Shown piece by piece: positions 590 through 62,149 of a stretch of DNA of 62,149 nucleotides; the stretch's first letter is position 1, and each line of letters starts with the position of its first letter. A program made the translations under genes and the position numbers. The stretch is from the sequence record SRR31156797_6875; one strand, 5' to 3'. Under the pieces are notes generated by a model. It saw only the letters and a program-made list of their open reading frames with translations. It did not search any database and was not told the DNA's origin.

Positions 590-862
590 ATGACAGCTGA
601 TTTAGTTATTGATATGTTGGTTCACGCATTACAGCTTACTCTTCTGATCGCCGCACCTATGCTTGGTGTAGGTCTTATAATCGGTCTTGCTATCAGTATC
701 TTCCAGTCGGTTACACAGATTCAGGAGATGACCCTTACATTTATTCCGAAGATCGTCGGTGTAGTCGCTGCGATTATGGTTTTTGCGCCTTGGATGGTGG
801 ACAAGATGATGGGGTATACTATTAATCTTTTCAGCAACCTCGGACAATACATAGGTAAGTGA
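590..862 (+). CDS. fliQ: Flagellar export protein FliQ
   Basis: 90 aa, FQSVTQIQEMTLTFIPK motif, directly after fliP. Confidence 0.97.
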   Translation: MTADLVIDMLVHALQLTLLIAAPMLGVGLIIGLAISIFQSVTQIQEMTLTFIPKIVGVVAAIMVFAPWMVDKMMGYTINLFSNLGQYIGK

Positions 863-2226
863 TGCTTAGACTTTTCTTAATACTCCTTCTGATAATCAAC
901 AGTACAGCTCTGTTCGCTGCGGAGCGAGCTATTAAAAGCGCAAAAGATATTGCAGATATGACTGCTGATGAGCTTTTCAGTAAGAGTGTCGCATTTGTCG
1001 GCGGAGTATTTGACTATTCTAACGGCTGGTCTGATCTTCCAGGTGTTAAAGACGATCTTAACGAAGTCGCTAATATCCTTAATGCGAGAGGGTTCGAAGT
1101 TCAGATCAAAGCTAATCTAACTAAAAATGAATATATAAATAGCCTCGAAAATTTCCTATATGAATACGGAGGCGATAGAAGAGCGAGAATACTTGTTTAC
1201 TACGCTGGTCACGGACACTCACTCACTGAAAGGGGTAAAAAAACTGGCTATATAGTCCTTAAGGATGCCGCTAATCCATCAAAAGGGTTGAAAGGATTTA
1301 AGGAGGGGAGCATCCCTATGACATTTTTTTCTGAAAAGGCAAAAGGTGTCAGGTCTAATCAAGTTCTGTTCGTTTTTGACAGTTGCTTTTCCGGTACGGT
1401 CTTCTCTGCGATGCGCTCTATACCGGAGCTGATAGTCGAACTCCTGAGAAAGCCAGTGCGCCAGTTTATATCATCCGGAACAGAGAACCAGCTTGTACCT
1501 GATGATTCTGTTTTTAAGCGCAGGTTTATCGATGGGCTTAAAGGCGATGCTGATATTGACGGCGATACGGTTATCACAGGCTCAGAGCTTGGAGAGTTTC
1601 TCCGTGAGACAGTATCGACCTATTCATCAGGAACCCAAACGCCTGTCCACGGTAAGATGACAGGGTATGATGGTGAATTTATCTTTTTCAATAAAGGTAG
1701 TGAGGTCGCTAAGACAACTTTAAAATTAGATAACAGTAAGATGCTCGACGAGAAATCACAGCTGATAGCATTTATAAGTAAAAATCCACACCACCCTGAC
1801 TCGCAGAAAGCTATGGCAAGACTGCGTGAGATTGATGAATCGATAAATAAGCTTCCGCCGCTTGAGCAGAATAGAAAGAATTTTAAGATGAGTGCAAAGT
1901 CTGTTGTTATAACAAAAAAGAAGCATATCAGTCCGGAGTATCCATATATCCTGATCGCTCCGGTCGTTATAAAAACAAAAGGGAAGAATTATAAGGCAGC
2001 ATTCAAGATTAAGGCGAAAGATAAGCTGAGTTTCAAAAAGCTTAGAGATAGAAAAGCGATGCTTAGATCAGTCATAAGCCGCAGACTGGATTTCTCCAGC
2101 CAGCAGCCTCAGGATATTTCACTCTTAAGAGACAGTATTAAAGCGAAAGCTTACGATGCCTCAAATTGGGTTTGTCCGGATTGTGTTACTGAAAAGCCCG
2201 CTATTGCAGGTCTAATGGGTTTATAA
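862..2226 (+). CDS. Secreted caspase-family (peptidase C14) protein with C-terminal extension, possibly FliL-like
   Basis: Signal peptide (MLRLFLILLLIINSTALFA); His motif YYAGHG and Cys motif VFDSCFSG; DADIDGDTVITGSELGEFL..QTP end of domain; ATG overlaps the fliQ stop (TGATG). Confidence 0.85.
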   Translation: MLRLFLILLLIINSTALFAAERAIKSAKDIADMTADELFSKSVAFVGGVFDYSNGWSDLPGVKDDLNEVANILNARGFEVQIKANLTKNEYINSLENFLYEYGGDRRARILVYYAGHGHSLTERGKKTGYIVLKDAANPSKGLKGFKEGSIPMTFFSEKAKGVRSNQVLFVFDSCFSGTVFSAMRSIPELIVELLRKPVRQFISSGTENQLVPDDSVFKRRFIDGLKGDADIDGDTVITGSELGEFLRETVSTYSSGTQTPVHGKMTGYDGEFIFFNKGSEVAKTTLKLDNSKMLDEKSQLIAFISKNPHHPDSQKAMARLREIDESINKLPPLEQNRKNFKMSAKSVVITKKKHISPEYPYILIAPVVIKTKGKNYKAAFKIKAKDKLSFKKLRDRKAMLRSVISRRLDFSSQQPQDISLLRDSIKAKAYDASNWVCPDCVTEKPAIAGLMGL

Positions 2227-54903: not shown

Positions 54904-55230
54904 TTACTTCTCGTGGCAGTTCTGGCATGTATTAAGCGGTGCGTGGTTGCCGTCAGCCGGCCATTTATTATGACATTGAAAGCAGTCATTTCCGCACTCT
55001 TCTGCCCCTCCGCCCCCGAGCTTGAACATCTGCTGATTACTTGGAGTGTGGCAGTTTATACATGTTTTAAGTGAGAGGTGATCAGTATCTCCTTCGAGTT
55101 TTGGGTGGCATGTCATGCAGTCTCCTGCGCATCCGGCGAAAGCTATGTAAGCTGTTCCCATAATGATAATTGCACAGAGTCCAGCAACAACTCTCCCTGC
55201 CTGCTTAAACGCACCTTCGAACCGTTCCAT
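54904..55230 (-). CDS. Small tetraheme c-type cytochrome
   Basis: Signal peptide ending AFA; CMTCH, CINCH, CFQCH and CQNCH; 5' end overlaps the 3' end of hemW. Confidence 0.85.
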   Translation of the reverse strand: MERFEGAFKQAGRVVAGLCAIIIMGTAYIAFAGCAGDCMTCHPKLEGDTDHLSLKTCINCHTPSNQQMFKLGGGGAEECGNDCFQCHNKWPADGNHAPLNTCQNCHEK

Positions 55231-56231
55231 TCCAGAAGCTCCTTTTCCACAAGTTTTTCAAGACTAGTATATATTCTTTTTCGTAACTTTTCATCTATTG
55301 TAGAGCATTTATTAACAATGTCCACTCCGTCGATCATTCTGAGACCAAAAACGATGTTTTCTATTATCTTATCAGGGCTTTTTGTTGTTTGTACTTCAGA
55401 AAATGAAGTTGGTGCTTTTATATAGTTTTTTATATCAGAAGGCTTACCTTTAAGTGTTCGTGTGTCACCATCGTTAATGAGCGACCATGCAGATGCACCT
55501 ATACCGTCGTAATCTCCAAGCTGCCAGTAGTTTATGTTGTGTTTACTCTCATGCCCGGGTTTTGCGAAGTTTGATATTTCATACTTAATATATCCGGCAT
55601 CCTCAAGAAAATCCTTAACCCGCATGAAGTCCGTATCATCTTCACGCTCATGGAGAAAATTGTTATCATTGCTGTATGTATATGCGGATATATGTGCAGG
55701 CTCGAGTGAGATGATATCTTTCATCGACTGTAATGTTGAGGAGTAGTCGACGTCTGGAATGTCGTATATAAGGTCGAGATTAATGTCTGTGTCTGGGGCA
55801 TACCCCTTCATCAGCTCGACAGAGCGGAATATGTCTGAAGCGTCATGAATTCTAGTAAGCTTAGTCAGCACTTCATTTGACGTGCTCTGACAGCCTATGC
55901 TCACACGGCTGAATTTGTAAGTGTTTACCAGCTCACAGAATTGCTCGTCAATGCTCTCAGGATTTGCCTCTATGGTGGTCTCTTTATACCAGCCGATATT
56001 AAGCACTGAGATTATATCCAGAAATGAAGCGAGCATCTTTCTGTCTACGCTGGAAGGCGTTCCACCGCCGACATAAAGAGTGTCATATCTTCGCTTGTTA
56101 CGTGAACGCAAATCAGTGACTACAGCCTTAAAATACTCCATCTGAAGGTCGAAGCAATCAGTATCTGAGTAGAATCCGCAGTAGGAACACTTATTTTTGC
56201 AAAAAGGCAGATGTACGTATAATCCTTTCAC
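55143..56231 (-). CDS. hemW: Radical SAM heme chaperone HemW (HemN-like)
   Basis: LYVHLPFCKNKCSYC, GGGTPS, EANP, YEISNFAK and HNINYW (HemW-type HNxxYW) motifs. Confidence 0.88.
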   Translation of the reverse strand: MKGLYVHLPFCKNKCSYCGFYSDTDCFDLQMEYFKAVVTDLRSRNKRRYDTLYVGGGTPSSVDRKMLASFLDIISVLNIGWYKETTIEANPESIDEQFCELVNTYKFSRVSIGCQSTSNEVLTKLTRIHDASDIFRSVELMKGYAPDTDINLDLIYDIPDVDYSSTLQSMKDIISLEPAHISAYTYSNDNNFLHEREDDTDFMRVKDFLEDAGYIKYEISNFAKPGHESKHNINYWQLGDYDGIGASAWSLINDGDTRTLKGKPSDIKNYIKAPTSFSEVQTTKSPDKIIENIVFGLRMIDGVDIVNKCSTIDEKLRKRIYTSLEKLVEKELLEWNGSKVRLSRQGELLLDSVQLSLWEQLT

Positions 56232-56377
56232 TACTTCTTATTAGATTTTTTGTTTTTTTTGTTTCGATCCTCGAGACTGCAGCTATCTGCACCAGGACCT
56301 CAGCCAGAACCCGGCTTAAGCCTTGTGAGCACAATGACAAAAACAATAAAAATGATCAACCCTATGTAATCTTCCAT
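56231..56377 (-). CDS. Candidate 48-aa membrane-anchored selenoprotein (UGA = Sec at codon 26)
   Basis: MEDYIGLIIFIVFVIVLTRLKPGSG-U-GPGADSCSLEDRNKKNKKSNKK*; GGGG RBS; TGA at 56302-56300; the readthrough TAG overlaps the hemW GTG (TAGTG). Confidence 0.65.
56266..56299 (-). promoter_or_regulatory. Putative bacterial SECIS hairpin
   Basis: Directly 3' of the UGA: GGUCCU-GG-UGCAG-AUAG-CUGCA-GUCUCG-AGGAUC (lower and upper stems). Confidence 0.5.
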
Positions 56378-56390
56378 TTTTTCCCCAAAA

Positions 56391-58475
56391 TTACTGTAAA
56401 ATTCCTTCTACAGGTTTTCCATCTATATAATATTTATATGAAATCTTATCAGTCATCTTAGGCACATATGAGCCGTTGATGCATATATTCACTTTTTCAG
56501 ATGAACGTTCAAACGGAAGGGTAAGTTTCCCTTTTGAGCTGTTCATCAGCCTACCATCTCTAATTATTGCCACAAGAGGGTAAATGTCAAGGGGATTGGT
56601 ATTGTATTTCCTTTTGATATCGCCCTTTATCTCAAGCTCAAAGCTGGTCAGTTTTTTACCGGGATAAGAGAAAACAGCGTCATAGCAGTAGTCTGCACGA
56701 CCGTCTTTCCCAGGTCTGTTCCTGTCGCCTATGAGGTCGGCTGATTTTTTCGGTTTATTTATAAAAACAAACGGTCTTTCGGTAACGACCTTTTGTGCAG
56801 ATTTTGAGTATTCTGTAATAATAATATAAGGCTTAAGTGTGTCGTATTGGGATGAAGCGGGAGAGAAGACGTGATTAGCTCTGGAACCGGCTTCCGGTAC
56901 GCCCCCGAGAACAATCGAGCCGTCGCCCTCTGTCAGCATGTCAGTTATATCTATCTCCATATGGTAAGGCTCTTCGTTAGGTCTCACCTGGCCTGCGTAG
57001 CTGCTTTTATCGAGGAAAGCTTGGGCGCCTTTGTGTTTTAAGCTGTACTTGAATAGCGAAAGGCTGCCGGATTGGTTATCCGGGAGGTGTGTCAGCACCA
57101 GTTTCGCTGAGATATTTTTAACAGGGTCGAGGTTAAGTGCTTCTCTGTTCGGCTTGATATAAACCATAGCGTTAGAGTCGTACCCTGCTCCTATATTTAG
57201 TAAGTTTTCGGATGATTTCAGCAGCTTCCCTTCGAAGTCCACAGCGAAGGTTTTTGTGAGTGCAGATTTATCTGTGAGGATAACCTTACGCTCCACAGGC
57301 TTGTATCCGCCGCTGTCAGCTTTGAAAACTCCACCGCCGCCAGTCCCTGACCATACACCCTCAATGGTTTCGCCTTTAAGTTCGCCTTTGAAGACCTGCT
57401 CACAGCCGAAGTCAGAGCCAACTCTTTTGCAGTCGAGTGTCAGTTCAAATTCGCTTTTGTTCACTTCACCTTTTAATGGGTAGCCTTTGTAACCTTTTGA
57501 TGTGTTTACATAAGCCGTTCCAAAAATACGATTACCTGCGGTCTCTATATTCCATATCTGGTTTCGTGTTTTGCCATTTGTGTTATACTTCAGCCCGCTT
57601 TCGAAAAAGCCGCCCTTAAACCTAGCCATCTCTGTGAGCTTATCCGGCTTCATATAAAATACGTCAGCCAGCTCAATGTCTTTTATGCCGTCTAACAGGA
57701 TTGTGTGTGAGAATTTCCCCTCACTGTCGGTCAGAAGACTGTCACCAGTCTCTAAGATATTTACCGTAGCTACAGGTAGCGGGTCTAAGTCTTTTGTGAA
57801 AACTTTACCGCTCACTGTTATGCTCGCCGGAAATTCTGTGGTGAACTCCAGCTGTTTTGTCTGCACCTCATACCCCTCTGCGGATATCTCCAGAGTGAGT
57901 CTTTTTATAAGGTACATTTCTGTATTGTTTACTATGTAACTGTCCAGCGCACCGTTAATAGGGTTCGCTATGTCCATAAGGGCGAAGCCGTCGTTAGCGT
58001 GCATCCAGACCACGAATGTTTTATTTATGTATACAAGGAAGAAGTCAGCGTCATTAATGTAGCCAGATTTCGGATAGAGGTAGAATAACCCACGCTCGCC
58101 GAAACGAACCTGCTGACTGCGGTTTTTCGGTGCGTCTTTTGTCAGCTCTCGGAAATACATCGATGCATCTACGAAGTTGTCAAAGGAGTATAGAGCTATA
58201 TTTGTCTCATATTGACCTTTGCGGATTATATTCATCATCTTCTTTGCACGACCGGAGTAGTATGAATATGTAGTTGAGAAAACAGTGTGGTTCGCCTCTC
58301 TCTTCGAGCGGATCCCTGTGTTTAACCAAAGCTCCGCTCCGCCCTCAAGCTGTGACACTTTTGGGAAGAATGATTTCACCTGCATCTCTGATATCTGCGC
58401 ATGTGCTGTATTTGTTATTAATAAAAAGAGCAGAAGGGCAAAAGCCCCTCTGCTGAAATATGATACTAGTTTCAT
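56391..58475 (-). CDS. Large exported hypothetical protein (beta-rich, includes a carboxypeptidase-regulatory-like segment)
   Basis: Signal peptide ending AHA; VSGKV....DPLPVATVNI......TDSEGKFS; ATG 58475 preferred because the longer start lies inside a repeat. Confidence 0.7.
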   Translation of the reverse strand: MKLVSYFSRGAFALLLFLLITNTAHAQISEMQVKSFFPKVSQLEGGAELWLNTGIRSKREANHTVFSTTYSYYSGRAKKMMNIIRKGQYETNIALYSFDNFVDASMYFRELTKDAPKNRSQQVRFGERGLFYLYPKSGYINDADFFLVYINKTFVVWMHANDGFALMDIANPINGALDSYIVNNTEMYLIKRLTLEISAEGYEVQTKQLEFTTEFPASITVSGKVFTKDLDPLPVATVNILETGDSLLTDSEGKFSHTILLDGIKDIELADVFYMKPDKLTEMARFKGGFFESGLKYNTNGKTRNQIWNIETAGNRIFGTAYVNTSKGYKGYPLKGEVNKSEFELTLDCKRVGSDFGCEQVFKGELKGETIEGVWSGTGGGGVFKADSGGYKPVERKVILTDKSALTKTFAVDFEGKLLKSSENLLNIGAGYDSNAMVYIKPNREALNLDPVKNISAKLVLTHLPDNQSGSLSLFKYSLKHKGAQAFLDKSSYAGQVRPNEEPYHMEIDITDMLTEGDGSIVLGGVPEAGSRANHVFSPASSQYDTLKPYIIITEYSKSAQKVVTERPFVFINKPKKSADLIGDRNRPGKDGRADYCYDAVFSYPGKKLTSFELEIKGDIKRKYNTNPLDIYPLVAIIRDGRLMNSSKGKLTLPFERSSEKVNICINGSYVPKMTDKISYKYYIDGKPVEGILQ

Positions 58476-58502
58476 TTGATTCCTTGTTACTAACGTGAGC
58501 AA

Positions 58503-58581
58503 AGATTGCTTCGTCACTTCGTTCCTCGCAATGACAGTTACTTGGCTGAGATTCTTACGTCGATAAGCTCCTCAGAATGAC
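58503..58581 (-). repeat. Two tandem REP-like elements (GTCAT family)
   Basis: rc GTCATTGCGAGGAACGAAGTGACGAAGCAATCT (near-identical to 5684-5716) and rc GTCATTCTGAGGAGCTTATCGACGTAAGAATCTC (related to 11985-12019). Confidence 0.82.
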
Positions 58582-62104: not shown

Positions 62105-62149
62105 GCTGATGTAGCTCAACTGGTAGAGCAACTGACTTGTAATCAGTAG
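62105..62149 (+). tRNA. tRNA-Thr(UGU), truncated by window end
   Basis: GCTGATGTAGCTCAACTGGTAGAGCAACTGACTTGTAATCAGTAG: D-arm and anticodon arm with TGT. Confidence 0.93.

Follow-up and report, generated by a model that had tools for sequence, protein, structure and literature searches.

A small membrane protein gene upstream of hemW with an in-frame UGA codon, very probably read as selenocysteine, belongs to a family conserved in Deferribacterota and a second phylum

Does the gap upstream of hemW in sequence record SRR31156797_6875 contain a gene for a membrane selenoprotein? The window, a stretch of 62,149 nucleotides (nt) that was analyzed over its whole length, has a 159-bp spacer between hemW and a gene for a 708-residue protein. 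An initial annotation had placed in this spacer an unlisted open reading frame (ORF) with a ribosome-binding site, an ATG, a transmembrane (TM) helix, an in-frame TGA, 22 further codons and a TAG. All of these were found where they had been described, and the claimed distance between the UGA-encoded residue and the next cysteine was confirmed, with U26 and C33 separated by six residues (U-x6-C). Codons 1-25 of this mini-ORF encode MEDYIGLIIFIVFVIVLTRLKPGSG, and the 22 open codons after the TGA encode GPGADSCSLEDRNKKNKKSNKK and are followed by TAG (56233-56231), whose G also opens the GTG start codon of hemW (56231-56229). The mini-ORF is an unannotated gene for a 48-residue, membrane-anchored protein, and its internal UGA is very probably decoded as selenocysteine (Sec). 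Taken as a whole, our analysis strongly favored the reading of this gene as a membrane selenoprotein in which a Sec insertion sequence (SECIS) directs Sec insertion at the UGA. The proposal of a single-pass membrane selenoprotein of about 48 residues that was missed by annotation is thus supported by a conserved TGA, a conserved downstream frame, a SECIS-type hairpin and the presence of Sec machinery in relatives.

A hairpin and 22 open codons in A-rich DNA, seen in the window by itself, constitute weak evidence. No global recoding is at work, since TGA is the normal stop for 12 of the window's 47 large ORFs, and the mini-ORF was lifted above chance because it is conserved in other genomes. 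The argininosuccinate synthase (ArgG) encoded in the window was 87% identical to that of a metagenome-assembled genome (MAG; G001), which places the window in the Deferribacterales. The same mini-ORF lies upstream of hemW in G001 and G002, where both its TGA and the frame past it are conserved. A word-index protein search with the 48-residue peptide gave no candidate, and pattern-based scans for the hemW locus in genome and metagenome contigs returned only relatives with 36% identity or less and no synteny. The read-through search of 68 genomes of the phylum Deferribacterota used the mini-peptide with cysteine at the U position as the query, so a cysteine form would score at least equally. Full-length matches with exactly one in-frame TGA were detected in 29 of the 68 genomes (E values from 7.6e-20 to 5.7e-5); inspection of 11 weaker matches showed that seven were Cys-rich small membrane proteins and four were spurious. 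A 21-nt motif taken from the conserved part had exact matches at 26 loci in species-representative genomes, and 25 of these were mini-ORFs with TGA. Eight of the 25 loci contained a second type of the protein, MDSDLLWLIIIFGVWFVLNRFVFPKLGVST-U-MSEACSIEDRYKKKK, and some of the genomes were labelled Thermodesulfobacteriota. An exact copy of the motif in a Cytophagales MAG (L174, 2476-2496) lies inside an HlyD-like ORF with no TGA upstream and is probably a chance match; by our own estimate, about 0.5 such exact 21-nt matches are expected.

The family extends to a second phylum. A profile built from 37 sequences detected it in all nine genomes of one order of that phylum and, in a sample of 401 genomes from the phylum, in 44, all of which carry the family with an in-frame TGA. 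The TGA column was invariant in 38 of 38 aligned sequences, and no TGC, TGT, TAA or TAG was found at the U codon among the matches in the 68 Deferribacterota and 401 second-phylum genomes. Two signs of Sec had been expected among homologs of the peptide: the sequence past the TGA was indeed conserved, and no homolog carried TAA or TAG at this codon, but no cysteine aligned to the TGA was found. A profile search of 1.84 billion protein representatives gave just three matches, each with tryptophan at the U column, which suggests that the TGA had been translated under a Trp-reading code. The family is invisible in protein databases because gene callers either end the ORF at the UGA or pass over an ORF of 25 codons. 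Motifs resembling ribosome-binding sites (AGGAG, GGAGG or GAGG type) preceded the mini-ORF at a similar distance in 37 of 37 relatives, with ATG, TTG or GTG as the start codon. Genera named by the records that matched the family include Denitrovibrio, Seleniivibrio, Deferribacter and Calditerrivibrio; these comprise cultured species, which makes the family testable in culture.

The pattern of change downstream of the UGA was that of a translated sequence. Eight close sequences differed at third positions only in the four codons after the TGA (0, 0, and 0.43 per codon pair), with 41 synonymous vs. 7 non-synonymous codon differences. Serine was found at the second position after U in 36 of 43 sequences of the second-phylum type and was encoded by AGY in 24 and by TCN in 12. 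Serine directly before the cysteine was encoded by AGY in 14 and by TCN in 14 of the 28 sequences of this type that had it (28/43), and by AGY in 13 and TCA in nine of 22 such sequences in Deferribacterota (22/29). The cysteine codon was always TGC or TGT (19 and 10, respectively, in 29 Deferribacterota; 34 and 9 in 43 second-phylum-type sequences). The spacer between U and C had four or six codons in 71 of 72 relatives and five in one, insertions and deletions downstream of the TGA were multiples of three, and the frame remained open through the Lys-rich tail in every member. From these alignments, amino acid selection in the frame past the UGA appears to be the only simple reading. Coding-type conservation downstream of the UGA, by which selenoprotein genes are judged, was present in this family.

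Selenoprotein genes are also judged by a stem-loop with a G in the apical loop that is supported by covariation, and this too was found, with one mismatch in the copy of the window. The hairpin concerned is not the one that the initial annotation had proposed as the SECIS. That two-part structure is what minimum free energy (MFE) folding predicts for the 66 nt that follow the TGA (-14.8 kcal/mol, z -2.26; 5 of 200 shuffles were equally stable). It is not what the family conserves: in the nearest relatives, G001 and G002, third-position changes that are synonymous disrupt the lower stem, and the upper stem is present in the closest clade only. The conserved hairpin is a different one, further 3', with the family consensus GUAUCGA-GGA-UCGAUAC. 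An automatic hairpin finder chose a stem of 6-8 bp in 68 of 73 members, with a GGA triloop in 56, GGU in four and GGC in two. The loop started at nt 27 from the U of the UGA in 45 members, at nt 33 in 12 and at nt 25 in nine. The bacterial SECIS (bSECIS) model of Zhang and Gladyshev reportedly allows a range of 16-37 nt, and the loop starts found here (nt 25-33) fall within it. The mini-ORF of the window is an orthologue of the clade with six-codon spacers, which places its loop at nt 33-35.

Divergent members of the second phylum keep the stem through paired changes, namely C-G to U-A (R to Q), U-A to G-C (S to R, Y to S) and A-U to C-G. Among 21 distinct sequences, double compensatory changes were detected in seven of eight pairs; 90.5% of cells were paired vs. 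19-38% when the partners were slid, and the covariation score was reached by none of 500 shuffles. The second register had double changes in five of eight pairs. The hairpin also encodes protein, S-L-E-D-R-N in the window, and the corresponding nucleotides (AGT ATC GAG GAT CGA TAC) were identical in 28 of 30 Deferribacterota sequences without synonymous change, compared to 0.60 third-position differences per codon pair in the TM part. Rfam gave no match at the hairpin in the window and four relatives.

Decoding of UGA as Sec depends on a dedicated machinery, and the initial annotation had pointed to its genes as a check; selA, selB, selD and tRNA-Sec were all found in relatives. Matches to selA scored over the cut-off in 28 of the 68 Deferribacterota genomes, with 27 among the 29 genomes that have the mini-ORF and one among the 39 that lack it; the two mini-ORF genomes without a selA match are small assemblies. 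The corresponding numbers for selB were 27 of 68 genomes, 25 of 29 and 2 of 39. The presence of the mini-gene in Deferribacterota follows that of selA and selB. A tRNA-Sec with anticodon TCA was detected in five of five related genomes tested, and selD had an in-frame TGA near the N-terminus in five of five (L201-L205; G001, G024, G033, G002, and G011). SelD itself is a selenoprotein in these Deferribacterota, and a hairpin with a 7-bp stem and a GGC or GGA triloop was predicted downstream of its TGA in four of the five. Matches to Fdh-alpha in the same five genomes had no in-frame TGA and hence provided no second SECIS for comparison. The selenoproteome known for this phylum may be small, with SelD having a TGA and Fdh-alpha lacking one. 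Of the Sec-lacking relatives, four that retain the 708-residue gene were examined, and in all four a KdsA-like gene (PF00793) comes after it at a distance of about 20 nt, with no mini-ORF between them; the order in Sec-using relatives is the 708-residue gene, the mini-ORF, the KdsA-like gene and hemW. A 92.8-kb contig from the same run as the window contained a match to the tRNA-Sec of G001 (98 nt, nine differences, 91% identity), and the upstream neighbor of the G001 tRNA-Sec was matched on the same contig (198 nt, 32 differences).

In the decoding that we propose, ribosomes would start at the ATG (56377) and reach the UGA (56302), where the 7-bp hairpin with its GGA triloop, nt 33-35 from the U, would recruit SelB and Sec-tRNA(Sec). 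We infer that SelB binds the conserved hairpin. Sec would then be inserted, and the ribosome would continue through the hairpin and stop at the TAG (56233). The features of the protein that are conserved are the TM helix, small residues before U, the U-x4/6-C pair and a basic tail, which is Lys-rich with D/E in most family members. The TM helix of the window is flanked by an acidic N-terminus (MEDY) and by R19 and K21 on its C-side. By the positive-inside rule, a basic C-side corresponds to an N-out/C-in topology; the four-residue acidic N-terminus would be outside the membrane, one TM helix would span it and the basic C-terminal part would be cytoplasmic, with the U/C pair likely facing the cytoplasm near the membrane. 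U26 and Cys33 may form a membrane-proximal selenenylsulfide redox center or a center that binds soft metals, metalloids or selenium. As candidate roles, the protein might act as a selenenylsulfide relay to a membrane partner, or it might handle selenium or a soft metal. A role that is possible with selenium only is suggested because no cysteine form was found and the gene is missing at the syntenic site of Sec-lacking relatives. We lean slightly toward the view that these genes form an undescribed, apparently Sec-only family of minimal single-pass membrane proteins, about 45-60 residues long and present in at least two phyla, whose SECIS co-evolves with the C-terminal peptide motif that it encodes and which may do something at the inner membrane face that only selenium can do.

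Several observations weigh against Sec insertion in this gene. Cysteine homologs, a classical supporting though not defining mark of selenoproteins, were found neither in the 68 and 401 genomes nor among the 1.84 billion representatives. The selA and selB pattern is confounded with phylogeny and represents few events, not 68 independent ones, because it follows clades; in the second phylum, selA has no discriminating power because it is nearly universal (369 of 401 genomes). For the organism of the window, the evidence on Sec machinery is indirect and consists of the tRNA-Sec match, in a run of about 1.5 million contigs from an apparently mixed sample. The stem never varies within Deferribacterota, so that alignment is uninformative on pairing and covariation comes from the second phylum alone, where the hairpin finder helped to assign the registers. 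The 18-nt core of the hairpin, invariant and free of synonymous change, behaves as an RNA element. In the alignment of 38 copies with this stem, a pair is broken in the window alone (third pair, A-U to C·A); the hairpin of the window folds weakly by itself (-3.1 kcal/mol, z -0.70), and in free RNA a competing fold, the lower stem of the two-part hairpin, sequesters the GGA loop. The 41-nt stretch that includes a neighboring small hairpin had a free energy of -8.1 kcal/mol in the window vs. -12.4 in G001. The broken pair, the weak hairpin with its alternative MFE fold, and changes at two family-invariant residues (I35L and Y39N) could mean that the selenoprotein family is real and that the copy in the window is inefficient or decaying. 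We consider this unlikely, as the ribosome-binding site, start, TM helix, UGA, cysteine and open frame to the stop are intact and neither the GGA loop nor the four upper pairs have changed. A lower stem that starts right after the UGA would sit within the footprint of the ribosome, so the ribosome should already enclose the competing stem while it decodes the UGA.

The RNA-like behavior of the hairpin core and the use of TGA as a normal stop in the window would also fit a peptide of 25 residues that ends at the UGA and is followed by an untranslated cis-element, such as one for SelB binding or mRNA stability. However, the part between the UGA and the hairpin evolves as protein, with serine switches between AGY and TCN, TGC/TGT exchange at the cysteine, third-position changes and spacers of four or six codons, and the frame is open through the Lys-rich tail in every member, which makes such an element very unlikely. 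The junction with hemW suggests yet another function for read-through, that of a selenium-sensing leader in which ribosomes that pass the UGA are delivered to the hemW start and the peptide has no function of its own. Such a leader would account for the TAG/GTG overlap in the window and for two relatives in which the stop adjoins the start or precedes it by 3 nt, and hemW has just a weak Shine-Dalgarno-like AAGAAG upstream. The overlap had initially been thought to make sense only with read-through, but hemW directly follows the mini-ORF only in the window and in three of 29 related loci (L121, L122, and L124); the overlap is peculiar to the closest relatives and does not belong to the design of the family. 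With a downstream gene that is not conserved (hemW at 4 of 30 loci, a KdsA-like gene at about nine, elsewhere an unrelated gene or one on the opposite strand) and a TM helix and U-x4/6-C pair under protein-level selection in two phyla, we regard the leader as highly improbable. A chance ORF in an A-rich intergenic spacer has practically no probability left: about one third of random sequences would keep 22 codons open ((61/64)^22, our own estimate) and the MFE hairpin reached a z of only -2.26, but conservation in 29 and 44 genomes of two phyla, always with TGA, refutes it. SECIS-directed Sec insertion into a small membrane protein remains our preferred reading. Coordinates of the features are given in Table 1.

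Table 1. Positions of the mini-ORF, its sequence elements and its neighboring genes in the window
Feature	Position	Strand	Basis and remarks
Shine-Dalgarno-like GGGGA	56382..56386	-	Sequence read; 5 nt upstream of ATG
Mini-selenoprotein ORF (very probable), 48 codons plus TAG, UGA as codon 26	56231..56377	-	Translation and orthologues with the same in-frame TGA
Start codon ATG	56377-56375	-	Sequence read
TM helix IGLIIFIVFVIVL, codons 5-17	56327..56365	-	Hydrophobic segment in all 37 aligned members, many synonymous changes
UGA codon (U26)	56300..56302	-	TGA invariant among relatives
Two-part hairpin of the initial annotation: GGUCCU 56299-56294 with AGGAUC 56271-56266; UGCAG 56291-56287, AUAG, CUGCA 56282-56278	56266..56299	-	MFE fold
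Cys33 codon TGC, partner of U26 (U-x6-C)	56279..56281	-	Cys invariant; codon TGC/TGT only
Family-conserved SECIS-type hairpin GUCUCGA-GGA-UCGAAAC	56261..56277	-	Consensus fold, 73-member survey, covariation
GGA loop of the conserved hairpin	56270-56268	-	nt 33-35 counted from U of UGA
Lys-rich C-terminal tail NKKNKKSNKK	56234..56263	-	Sequence varies, character kept
hemW-like radical SAM gene, GTG overlapping the mini-ORF TAG	55143..56231	-	Pfam Radical_SAM and HemN_C; orthologues 49-62% identical in whole-genome searches of relatives
Upstream gene for 708-residue protein, signal-peptide-like N-terminus, weak CarboxypepD_reg-like stretch	56391..58517	-	Pfam; conserved neighbor in Deferribacterota

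In Deferribacterota, the conserved neighbor of the mini-gene is the gene for the 708-residue protein: 23 of 29 related loci encode a homologue of this protein directly upstream, with identities from 73% down to about 22%. This family is known only as "hypothetical protein" of this phylum and appears to be phylum-specific; a search of the ESM Atlas with the 708-residue protein gave no usable match. The protein is exported and persists in Sec-lacking genomes that have no mini-gene. A 746-residue ORF upstream of the mini-gene in L179 was considered as a counterpart and is unrelated to it.

Neighborhoods in the second phylum were varied and gave no firm functional lead. A 335-residue gene without assigned function was found in nine of 21 loci and has a SIS-domain gene as its neighbor in seven of the nine; a PBP5-like gene was found in five loci. 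Genes for DsbD_TM/CcdA-like thiol-disulfide transporters adjoin the mini-gene in four second-phylum loci (L162, L220, L223, and L224); the one in L162 is directly upstream on the same strand and is a possible hint of a redox partner. On the other side of hemW in the window, just downstream of it, a 108-residue ORF (54904-55230, minus strand) contains four CxxCH motifs and resembles a small multihaem cytochrome c, although Pfam gave no match. As listed, it overlaps the 3' end of hemW by about 88 nt, and its true start is probably further downstream. The hemW-like haem chaperone gene and this cytochrome ORF may be a functional pair. Elsewhere in the window, a caspase/CHAT-domain protein (Peptidase_C14) that is unrelated to the mini-gene is encoded at 859-2226 (plus strand), and the 5' part of a tRNA gene, truncated by the window end, lies at 62105-62149 (plus strand).

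The mechanism of decoding is a known one; the family itself seems to be absent from existing catalogues. Searches of Pfam and NCBIfam with four members gave no relevant match at E values up to 10, and Pfam gave none for P0002-P0004 at E values up to 1. Table 1 of a 2026 review (PMC13188914) gives 119 catalogued prokaryotic selenoprotein families, and no entry was seen in it for a TM protein of about 50 residues with U-x4/6-C; candidate lists from recent large-scale predictions such as deep-Sep, BSepDB and a groundwater MAG study cited in the review may still contain the family. The model scans covered the catalogued families that have Pfam, NCBIfam or TIGR models, as opposed to cd or PTHR models only. 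What is unusual in the family is its very small size, the lack of any cysteine form among the sequences searched, and the use of one stretch both as the SECIS and as a conserved peptide motif. A catalogue dominated by soluble, thioredoxin-fold enzymes would gain a tiny, membrane-anchored type.

In size and layout, the mini-selenoprotein resembles the FeoB-associated Cys-rich membrane proteins (PF12669), which have about 45-60 residues with an N-terminal TM helix and basic residues followed by G-C-G-x-x-C. No PF12669 match to the mini-selenoprotein was obtained at E values up to 10 with four members and up to 1 with three more. The seven Cys-rich small membrane proteins recovered in the read-through search (L151-L157; TM helix, KK, GSCGCG..C..C) have sub-threshold PF12669 scores (22.7 and 25.7 bits vs. 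a cut-off of 27). They differ from the mini-selenoprotein in having several cysteines and no TGA, and they occur both beside it (G021-G023) and in Sec-lacking genomes (G029-G032). As candidates for the cysteine form they were rejected; they do not adjoin the 708-residue homologue and are not convincingly homologous, with hhalign aligning only eight columns at a probability of 52%.

A further parallel in design is provided by the eukaryotic selenoproteins K and S, small single-pass membrane proteins with a flexible, charged, cytosolic tail that contains Sec, which in SelS forms a pair with a cysteine close by. Their SECIS is in the 3'-UTR and their Sec is at the extreme C-terminus. To our knowledge, neither has any sequence relation to the mini-selenoprotein, and the analogy is one of design only.

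In its decoding signals, the mini-gene follows the bacterial SECIS of the fdhF/selD type, with an in-frame UGA, a stem-loop at a fixed short distance and a G at the start of the apical loop. The loop of Escherichia coli fdhF, GGUC closed by an A-U pair, is close to the CGA-GGA-UCG of the mini-gene family. The hairpin in selD of related Deferribacterota has the same build as that of the mini-gene, a 7-bp stem with a GGC or GGA triloop, but its loop lies at nt 21-23 from the U vs. 25-35 in the mini-gene, i.e., 4-12 nt closer to the UGA. The family thus provides a short natural SECIS (7 bp and a GGA loop) at two or three spacings that is testable in recoding experiments, and a clean case of dual constraint on RNA and protein, with an 18-nt stretch identical in two phyla. 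Like known bacterial selenoprotein genes, the mini-gene co-occurs with selA, selB and tRNA-Sec; unlike them, it encodes a protein of only about 45-60 residues with one TM helix, and its SECIS encodes the most conserved stretch of the peptide, CSIEDRY.

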